This document shows positions 6,495 through 6,570 of a stretch of 64,000 nt of DNA, piece by piece. The position numbers and the translations under genes were made by a program. Each line of letters opens with the position of its first letter. The first letter of the stretch is position 1. Below the pieces are notes generated by a model, which was given only the letters and a program-made list of their open reading frames with translations, was not told where the DNA came from and searched no databases. This stretch comes from Klebsiella phage LPKP23, in sequence record PV112478.1, one strand, 5' to 3'.

Positions 6495-6570
6495 GTTTAG
6501 TTATTTAGAAAGGTCTTTACCTTTCCTTCTTCACCTTGGCTATATATACATCAAAAAAACTGCATTTCAT
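6495..6570 (-). promoter_or_regulatory. conserved promoter/leader module, copy 1: GTTTAGTTATTT, small hairpin, GCTATATATACATCAAAAAAACTGCATTTC
   Basis: near-identical to 27447-27530; similar modules at 30375-30455, 49677-49760 and core at 60124-60151; always upstream of a minus-strand gene. Confidence 0.55.

Follow-up and report, generated by a model that had tools for sequence, protein, structure and literature searches.

Within a 64-kb stretch of Klebsiella phage LPKP23 (PV112478.1; the whole stretch is called the window here), a sequence-only reading had pointed to a promoter-and-leader module of about 80 nucleotides (nt) near position 6,500 and to four further sites resembling it. All coordinates below are window positions unless a genome is named, and all module copies read on the minus strand, as do about 85% of the open reading frames (ORFs) in the window. 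All five sites proved to be real. Four are full copies of the ~80-nt module (6486-6566, 27442-27522, 30369-30452 and 49669-49753), and the fifth, at 60114-60147, has the promoter half only. The full copies form the largest direct-repeat family found in a repeat search of the window (family D1; 60 nt, at 6509, 27465, 30395 and 49696). Blastn within the window aligned copies 1 and 2 with an E value of 1e-19, copies 3 and 4 with 3e-10, copies 1 and 4 with 2e-7, and copies 1 and 3 with 7e-7, and it recovered the core-only copy at 60124 with E values of 1e-3 to 4e-3. The 20-mer CATCAAAAAAACTGCATTTC, earlier described as shared by two copies, occurs in the window exactly twice, at 6549 and 27505.

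Every copy lies 5' of a minus-strand gene, as the sequence-only reading had claimed. The genes behind the four full copies are mutually unrelated ORFans without a PHROG match. The repeat therefore cannot be traced to paralogy of these genes and is not a by-product of gene duplication. Read along the minus strand, the module begins with (A)ATGCAG or CTCCAA and continues through T7, six nt (GATGTA, AACATC or CATGTA), TATAT(A/T)GC, five nt and TGA(A/T); then come 3-4 nt, an AGGAAAG...CTTTYC hairpin, (A/T)TAACTAAAC, 5-9 nt, a Shine-Dalgarno (SD) sequence and ATG. The four ordered elements described earlier are all present, except that copy 1 reads AAGTTTAGTTATTT and not TTGGTTTAGTTATTT, and that the supposed TTGGAG element is, in copies 3 and 4, an arm of an upstream terminator stem (in copy 4 only a remnant of one). 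Across 12 paralogous and orthologous copies, the invariant positions of the promoter are the T-tract, TATAT, the C at core position 8 and GTGA. Those of the leader are A..GAA and TTT in the hairpin arms and the element AACTAAAC, which is unchanged in 12/12 copies from both lineages.

The phage and its relatives

The window shares 99.1% identity with 'Serratia phage KpZh_1' (299 kb; host Klebsiella pneumoniae) and 79% with both Klebsiella phage vB_KpM_FBKp24 (Maaswegvirus; FBKp24 hereafter) and Centimanus. FBKp24, a jumbo myovirus, has genes for a tubulin and a nuclear-shell protein (PMC8386662), and its record contains split RNA polymerase (RNAP) beta/beta' fragments (gp026, 068, 069, 082, 328, 329 and 370). 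In a search of the PDB, gp069 matched PHIKZ071, a chain of the phiKZ non-virion RNAP (nvRNAP), over its full length (7ogp_C, E=6e-80), and gp370 matched PHIKZ123 (7ogp_E, E=2e-61). The product of gp329, a gene that sits among virion genes, was only distantly RNAP-like and had no closer solved relative in this search, as expected for a virion-RNAP subunit. No RNAP gene lies in the window; the polymerases were tested in this 79%-identical relative. Because FBKp24 has tubulin and shell genes and phiKZ-type polymerases, we assign the phage to the phiKZ-type, nucleus-forming jumbo phages, with a genome of ~300 kb. Phages of this type use a virion RNAP (vRNAP) for early transcription and the nvRNAP later (PMC7598289), and by analogy we expect early genes here to be transcribed by an injected vRNAP and later genes by an nvRNAP. 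Apart from the polymerases, window positions 9068-19651 are syntenic with phiKZ 12584-23336 (gp25-gp30), in the order terminase, three virion genes, divergent tail sheath and next virion gene.

The module core belongs to a genome-wide class

We built a sequence-only covariance model from 10 module copies and searched it against the window, KpZh_1 and FBKp24. Each of the three gave exactly four full-length matches (58-80 bits). The next-best matches scored at most 24 bits and covered the promoter part only; the match at copy 5 (60120-60147), for instance, was limited to model positions 2-29. All 27 matches lie on the minus strand.

When all intergenic regions were read, the module core, T7-N6-TATAT(A/T)GC-N5-TGA, turned out to be a variant of a genome-wide motif with the commonest form TATATCAC-N5-TGAA, which has the same spacing and likewise a T-rich tract upstream. 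The joint pattern TATATNRCNNNNNTGA has seven exact matches in the window, all on the minus strand, against 0.20 expected, and none of 100 shuffles reached seven. It has 20 matches in KpZh_1 and 20 in FBKp24, spread over the genome, where about one per genome is expected, and 40/40 of these exact sites are on the gene-sense (minus) strand. Even TATATCAC alone occurs 23 times on the minus strand of KpZh_1 and once on the plus strand. These counts, for KpZh_1 and most of FBKp24, come from pattern searches and cmsearch, not from a de novo motif finder. The sites are intergenic and stand at operon heads, and their number is on the scale of tens (20 exact per genome), compared with only four copies of the 80-nt module. 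The genome-wide core search that had been proposed thus shows a class wider than the module, with at least 20 sites per genome; the majority read TATATCAC, and their leaders are unrelated. It had also been argued that an element absent elsewhere in the genome would more likely be a local duplication than a promoter class. Such absence does hold for the 80-bp module, since all four copies lie in the window, but not for its core.

The module cores differ from the majority of the class at positions -9 and -8, where they have A/T and G instead of C and A. Strict module patterns (YRTMTATATWGC and T7-N-AYRTMTATAT) found, genome-wide, the four module copies and one plus-strand near-match. The latter lies just past the end of the window (KpZh_1 ~119,400-119,430; core at 119,409) and reads TCTATATTGC-CTATAA-TGAAGG, with N6 rather than N5 spacing; either chance or a rare early promoter on the plus strand could account for it. 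A scan of IMG/VR for the core plus a hairpin arm returned FBKp24 itself and one chance match in a coding region, a scan for TATATCACNNTATTGAW gave at least 119 single chance matches and was uninformative, and a literature search for the string TATATCAC returned primer sequences only.

Among the FBKp24 genes preceded by such sites are the shell gene gp083, the nvRNAP operon gp069/068, and gp371/gp370. Shell and nvRNAP genes must be expressed before the non-virion polymerase exists.

Correspondence to early promoters of the phiKZ group

Early promoters of the phiKZ group have a conserved AT-rich element of ~10 nt near -10 that can be detected bioinformatically in every RNAP-encoding jumbo phage (PMC7598289). 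Transcription starts 6 nt downstream of it, as in the AR9 consensus AAATATATATTAT-(6N)-G (PMC5312081), and in phiKZ the extended -10 element is accompanied by a T-rich motif upstream of -19 (PMC8244752). The published consensus strings are TATATTAC for phiKZ, ..TATATTACDWHDGTG for 201phi2-1 and ..ATATTATYWAAGTGWA for N1M2 and OBP; in longer form they read ..TTTRARR-BTATATTAC-DWHD-GTG for 201phi2-1 and ..TTTCARRYAKATATTATYWAAGTGWA for OBP and N1M2, with 31 sites in N1M2 (PMC7058600).

We collected phiKZ sites from the first 50 kb of its genome, where TATATTAC occurs seven times, always on the plus strand, in intergenic regions and ~55-80 nt before gene starts; one of the seven precedes the shell gene PHIKZ054. 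These seven sites, five majority-type sites and the four module copies can be aligned without a gap. The invariant columns of this alignment are TATAT, C8, a T-G six nt downstream (16/16 sites) and several T/A columns upstream. All module copies have T7 (or TTTGTTT) at -27..-21, and most majority-type sites are T-rich there. The module core TTTTTTTGATGTATATATWGCYAAGGTGAA fits the phiKZ-group promoter family position by position. On the basis of this alignment and the published features, we predict that the element lies at -14..-7, that the T-tract lies at -27..-21 and that transcription starts at the G listed for each copy in Table 1. The predicted starts give 5' untranslated regions (UTRs) of 53-61 nt for the four full copies and of 53-63 nt when copy 5 is included.

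The predicted leader

A hairpin is predicted at +7..+27 of the leader, with folding energies of -10.2, -11.7 and -9.2 kcal/mol (z=-2.3, -3.6 and -2.0) in three copies, and its helix is 87% paired across 11 distinct paralogous and orthologous sequences. Such a structure is plausible. It comes after the predicted start and lacks a U-run, and no Rfam family matched at the gathering threshold anywhere in the window. Copy 5 and several majority-type leaders have 5'-proximal hairpins of unrelated sequence at similar positions, which fits a generic role in protecting the 5' end. The earlier picture of a promoter class with a fixed, structured 5' UTR is partly supported: a phage-specific promoter is the best reading, but the fixed leader is confined to the four-copy subfamily.

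The leader string TAACTAAAC has seven occurrences in the window (0.72 expected), each of them on the minus strand; 6/7 stand 17-26 nt before a start codon, including three sites that have the leader half only (Table 1). Two explanations were tried and rejected. That AACTAAAC is a phiKZ-type middle promoter (A-rich sequence plus TACT at -22) is ruled out, as the start would fall on or after the SD sequence. An epsilon-type translational enhancer acting through complementarity to 16S rRNA is not supported either, since the best complement of TAACTAAAC, at the epsilon target 457-465, has 2 mismatches of 9. The element may belong to an extended ribosome-binding region, or it may be a site for RNA processing or for protein binding. 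Of the whole module, only the conserved leader lacks a known counterpart.

Plus-strand genes beside the module

Three copies (1, 2 and 4) lie in divergent intergenic regions, and the sequence-only reading had placed plus-strand genes, each starting at an ATG with a weak SD sequence, about 40 nt away from them. This ATG is probably no start codon at all but part of a TATG motif. In FBKp24, an in-frame TGA comes after that ATG, and the start is annotated at a conserved GTG with a GAAGGA SD sequence, 33 nt downstream. The motif TATG (background frequency 0.0015 per nt) is found 11-50 nt upstream of the start in 7/7 plus-strand transcription units, four of which have no module nearby. The late promoter of phiKZ, read by the nvRNAP, is T-3ATG+1 (PMC7598289), and by analogy the plus-strand TATG is a candidate phiKZ-type late promoter and transcription start site (TSS). 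The comparison also suggests corrected start codons at GTG 6621 and ATG 27572. The string CCCTATGAT is found, too, before the minus-strand terminase gene near 11280. Because the promoter class is one-stranded and asymmetric and the plus-strand units have a TATG of their own, each divergent region most likely contains two promoters with ~40 nt between them: the minus strand would have an early promoter and the plus strand one of late type.

Signs of exchange between copies

The four copies lie at orthologous positions in FBKp24 and Centimanus, and several features are signs of exchange between them. The upstream part of copy 4 in the window (ATCTCCAA-T7) resembles copy 3, in which ATCTCCAA is the 3' arm of a terminator stem, whereas the copy-4 orthologues in FBKp24 and Centimanus carry the ATCGAAATGCAG of copies 1 and 2 instead. 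Within FBKp24, the cores of copies 1 and 2 are 100% identical, compared with 83-91% between orthologues. The window and KpZh_1 are 98-99% identical except in three segments (Table 1) that are replaced or have diverged too far for megablast. None of these segments ends at a module; the boundaries in KpZh_1 fall within the first gene and at a terminator.

Probable early start cassettes and the alternatives

We consider it quite probable that the modules are early transcription-translation start cassettes of a phiKZ-like jumbo phage that are read by its vRNAP. Early promoters of a phage-encoded RNAP, one possibility raised by the sequence-only reading, are the best-supported account of the repeat: the gap-free alignment with phiKZ, the published consensus strings, the phiKZ-type polymerases of FBKp24 and the position of class members before nvRNAP and shell genes all point in this direction, and with this sequence correspondence and genomic context the early-promoter assignment is well supported. 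In the mechanism that we propose, a multisubunit vRNAP packaged in the virion and injected with the DNA would recognise the -10-like TATAT(A/T)GC, of which TATATCAC is the commonest form in this genome and TATATTAC the form in phiKZ, assisted by the T-rich tract. Transcription would start at the conserved G six nt downstream. The leader would open with the purine/pyrimidine stem-loop, most likely as protection of the 5' end, and would end in the invariant AACUAAAC, after which come the SD sequence and start codon that open a short operon. These operons carry ORFan genes, presumably for host takeover, and each would close at a conserved intrinsic terminator. The four copies would then be paralogous regulatory cassettes in front of unrelated genes, kept alike by selection, gene conversion or both.

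Several observations weigh against this interpretation. Start site, timing and polymerase are assigned by analogy for this phage and its genus. The hairpin of copy 4 is weak and folds no better than shuffled sequences (z=+0.1). The leader had earlier been described as structured, and a hairpin is indeed predicted, but compensatory covariation did not appear: across the 11 sequences, 0/7 helix pairs changed on both sides. Sliding the helix register by one column still left 79% of positions paired, because the arms are homopurine and homopyrimidine. Neither TAACTAAAC nor AACTAAAC has a complement with at most one mismatch in E. coli 16S rRNA (rrsB). FBKp24 and Centimanus are nearly identical at the module loci, so the comparison covers only two effectively independent lineages. 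Finally, the module core deviates from the majority at two positions (-9 and -8, CA to A/T,G), and the AR9 vRNAP is reported not to tolerate single deviations at some positions (PMC5312081); the four modules could thus be a functionally distinct subclass.

Such a subclass, in which the WGC core and the invariant leader with AACUAAAC would give the transcripts other timing (immediate-early, middle or continuous) or target them to an RNA-binding, translational or processing factor, is in our view improbable. The two deviating positions are the same in all copies of both lineages, AACTAAAC and stretches of the hairpin arms stay constant while the bases around them change, the leader half stands alone before three other genes, and AR9 has genes with dual promoters as well as 'pre-early' transcripts (PMC5312081). 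Against this, spacing, T-tract and start-site context equal those of the majority class and of phiKZ early promoters, the middle promoters of phiKZ have another form, an A-rich repeat followed by TACT at -22 (PMC8244752), and no candidate for a binding protein was identified. The 80 bp might also serve mainly as a recombination substrate, a mobile cassette that shuffles ORFans and is kept similar by gene conversion, as promoter-early stem-loop (PeSL) cassettes do in T4-type phages (PMC2839356). The half-cassettes that occur apart (promoter half at 60114-60147, leader halves at 5015, 48985 and 59682), the mixed affinities of copy 4, the identical cores of copies 1 and 2 in FBKp24 and the replacement of most of the copy-3 operon all agree with this idea. 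We nevertheless judge it unlikely as the main function: the replaced segments do not end at the module, the four copies keep their orthologous positions in a 79%-identical genome, and mobility is compatible with promoter function rather than an alternative to it.

The suggestion that the palindromic core TATATATA fires in both directions and also drives the divergent plus-strand genes is not supported, and we regard it as very unlikely. In its favour are the three divergent copies with a plus-strand ATG ~40 nt away, and ATCGAAATGCAG beside the T-tract, which only divergent copies share. But the exact class sites and the model matches are one-stranded throughout, most class members, copy 3 included, have no plus-strand neighbour, and conservation is asymmetric, with the T-tract on one side and C8 and TG on the other. 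Moreover, the ATG in question is not the start codon in FBKp24, and all seven plus-strand units have a TATG of the phiKZ late promoter type. Least credible of all are host sigma-70 promoters, which the GenBank record of FBKp24 might suggest: its 'promoter' features overlap the copy-3 orthologue and overlap or adjoin three majority-type sites, and one weak 9/12 match (TCGAAA-18-TATATT) overlaps copy 2. That record has no promoter features at module orthologues other than that of copy 3, and the FBKp24 paper contains no discussion of promoters. No -35 element is conserved in the alignments, and in several copies the critical last T of the -10-like hexamer is missing. A sigma-70 scan of 26500-31000 gave no match at copy 3 and a total of 11, about background (6.8 +/- 2.4). 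Phages of the phiKZ type transcribe independently of the host RNAP (PMC7598289, PMC8244752), and it is the phiKZ vRNAP promoters that the motif matches position by position.

Other features of the window

The coordinates of the module copies and of related features are collected in Table 1. The window holds seven exact-motif predicted promoters and two near-matches. Behind the promoter at 9049, which precedes the gene for a 348-aa protein at 7919-8965, positions +13..+40 form a very stable hairpin (-17 kcal/mol, z=-5.4) with a U-run, and the region 8986-9049 (minus) is kept in FBKp24 and Centimanus. By analogy with some phiKZ 5' UTRs, this hairpin could be an attenuator or the source of a short RNA. 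In FBKp24, positions 213,902-214,039 (minus) have a promoter of the TATATCAC type ~100 nt upstream of an annotated terminator with no ORF in between, a candidate short non-coding early transcript.

The minus strand has two core-like strings, GGCTATATTAC and TGTATATATTTC, at 45267-45310, just past a bidirectional terminator and opposite the 3' end of the plus-strand gene 42654-45317. Both lack a correctly spaced T-G and are probably there by chance, or possibly mark an antisense start. Short early operons are closed by related minus-strand intrinsic terminators (AGAGGGG-loop-CCCTCT followed by T8-10), a family that recalls the conserved terminator motif reported for phiKZ (PMC10914365).

Table 1. 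Module copies, related promoter and leader sequences, terminators, TATG motifs and replaced segments in the window.
Feature	Position	Strand	Description
Module copy 1, promoter and leader to start codon	6477..6566	minus	T7 6553-6559; core TATATAGC 6539-6546; predicted TSS G 6532; hairpin 6507-6526 (+7..+26); AACTAAAC 6495-6502; ATG 6477-6479; 5' UTR 53 nt; upstream of ORF 5820-6479
Module copy 2, promoter and leader	27428..27522	minus	T7 27509-27515; core TATATTGC 27495-27502; predicted TSS 27488; hairpin 27462-27482; AACTAAAC 27450-27457; ATG 27428-27430; 5' UTR 58 nt; upstream of 52-aa ORF 27272-27430
Module copy 3, promoter and leader	30355..30452	minus	T7 30439-30445 (doubles as U-run of upstream terminator); core TATATAGC 30425-30432; predicted TSS 30418; hairpin within 30388-30417; AACTAAAC 30375-30382; ATG 30355-30357; 5' UTR 61 nt; upstream of ORF 29947-30357
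Module copy 4, promoter and leader	49657..49753	minus	T7 49740-49746; core TATATTGC 49726-49733; predicted TSS 49719; weak hairpin 49692-49719; AACTAAAC 49676-49683; ATG 49657-49659; 5' UTR 60 nt; upstream of ORF 49027-49659
Copy 5, promoter half only (ATGCAATTTGTTTCATGTATATATCTC-N5-TGC)	60114..60147	minus	core 60121-60128; predicted TSS 60114; leader unrelated to module, own predicted hairpin 60085-60107; upstream of ORF 59680-60051
Intrinsic-terminator-like hairpin (AATTGGAGATGAACCCATCTCCAATT + T7)	30444..30469	minus	ends upstream minus-strand gene, abuts module 3
Hairpin CCCTACAGCAC-GCAT-GTGCTGTAGGG	60152..60177	minus	directly upstream of copy 5; terminator-then-promoter arrangement
Majority-type core TATATCAC-N5-TGA	4202..4217	minus	no module leader; behind a terminator
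Majority-type core TATATCACTCTATTGA	9034..9049	minus	leader with strong terminator-like hairpin 8996-9023
Majority-type core TATATCACTTTATTGA	33818..33833	minus	
Majority-type core TATATCACCCTATTGC	42575..42590	minus	TGC for TGA
Leader half only, TAACTAAACCAATAAGGAA-N-ATG	4991..5015	minus	after hairpin, no promoter core; upstream of ORF 4625-4990
Leader half only, variant CAACTAAACCTATAGAGGAAAGTCAAATG	48960..48985	minus	after hairpin, no promoter core; upstream of ORF ending 48492
Leader half only, TAACTAAACCAGTAAAAGAAGAAGGAG-N-ATG	59649..59682	minus	after hairpin, no promoter core; upstream of ORF 58161-59648
Terminator family	121-151, 4238-4265, 7878-7905, 22675-22702, 28119-28146, 48452-48479, 53706-53733	minus	
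TATG sites of plus-strand units	6585-6588, 16679-16682, 19752-19755, 27541-27544, 35946-35949/35985-35988, 42639-42642, 49762-49765	plus	often YTATGA
TATG near copy 1	6585..6588	plus	~40 nt from copy 1 core; 34 nt upstream of likely GTG start 6621 of head-protein gene
TATG adjoining copy 2	27541..27544	plus	31 nt upstream of in-frame ATG 27572 (GGGGA SD)
TATG adjoining copy 4	49762..49765	plus	39 nt upstream of glycosyltransferase start 49800
Segments replaced relative to KpZh_1	25829-26251; 28179-30081; 43142-45321		second: most of copy-3 operon; third: C-terminal part of 887-aa plus-strand gene

Significance

The analysis offers a testable transcription map for a so far unstudied genus of nucleus-forming Klebsiella jumbo phages that are candidates for therapy. 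It yields predicted early promoters and their starts, a candidate late-promoter motif (TATG) and corrected start codons for plus-strand genes. The architecture of phiKZ early promoters appears to be kept almost base for base between Pseudomonas and Klebsiella phages, which constrains how the still poorly understood virion RNAP recognises DNA. Current views are not overturned by this; the early-promoter signal is of the expected kind and newly seen in an unstudied phage group. The four-copy cassette itself would be a compact, probably strong expression unit that does not depend on the host RNAP and could serve phage engineering.

A bolder and rather doubtful proposal is that the four cassettes mark a dedicated class of first-wave transcripts, with the 5' stem-loop and AACUAAAC acting as a signal for a phage or ribosomal factor, WGC tuning the vRNAP, and the half-cassettes being traces of a mobile unit. 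If that were true, mRNAs from the just-injected genome might be selectively translated, stabilised or handled before the phage nucleus forms, and the half-cassettes would trace a mobile 'plug-and-play' expression unit for newly acquired ORFans.

Comparison with known systems

The leader of T7 gene 10 contains the 'epsilon' enhancer, UUAACUUUA, upstream of the SD sequence. The module leader is like it in having a short A/U-rich element with UAACU a few nt upstream of a strong SD sequence.

As composite cassettes, the modules recall the PeSLs of T4-type phages (PMC2839356, PMC4122927). Both are repeated units of AT-rich tract, early promoter, stem-loop, SD sequence and start codon, placed before ORFans in variable regions, and the modules, too, have half-cassettes and show signs of exchange among copies. 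Two PeSL features are missing here, the sigma-70-like promoter and the stem-loop that serves as a terminator. PeSLs have sigma-70-type promoters and number ~50 per genome, whereas here the promoter is of the phiKZ type and there are four copies only. The stem-loop of a PeSL is a terminator within or upstream of the promoter, whereas the one described here lies in the transcribed leader and lacks a U-run, and terminators, where present (copies 3 and 5), are separate upstream hairpins.

Early promoters of AR9 share with the class an AT-rich element of alternating TA and a start, predicted for the class, at a G six nt downstream, AAATATATATTAT-(6N)-G+1. They are read by an injected multisubunit vRNAP independently of protein synthesis (PMC5312081). 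AR9 differs in its uracil-containing genome, in forming no nucleus and in having a longer element without the terminal C. The predicted early promoters of 201phi2-1, OBP, EL and the Klebsiella aerogenes phage N1M2 (PMC7058600) have the layout of TTTTTTTGATGTATATATWGCYAAGGTGAA; the 31 sites of N1M2 are comparable to the at least 20 found here. Their 8-mers are genus-specific, and none of those reports describes a shared leader past the start site.

The early promoters of phiKZ itself belong to a phage of a different host and genus, and their sixth core base is T, where the majority class has C and the modules A or T; the modules further have G as the seventh base. Leaders measured from the predicted starts are 53-63 nt long here and typically 31-40 nt in phiKZ (PMC8244752). 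The two phages share TATAT-N-A/G-C, five nt and T-G in a gap-free alignment, a T-rich tract upstream of about -19 with further T/A columns beyond it, and the setting of the promoters, which are gene-sense and intergenic, occur in tens of copies per genome and stand before the shell gene in both.

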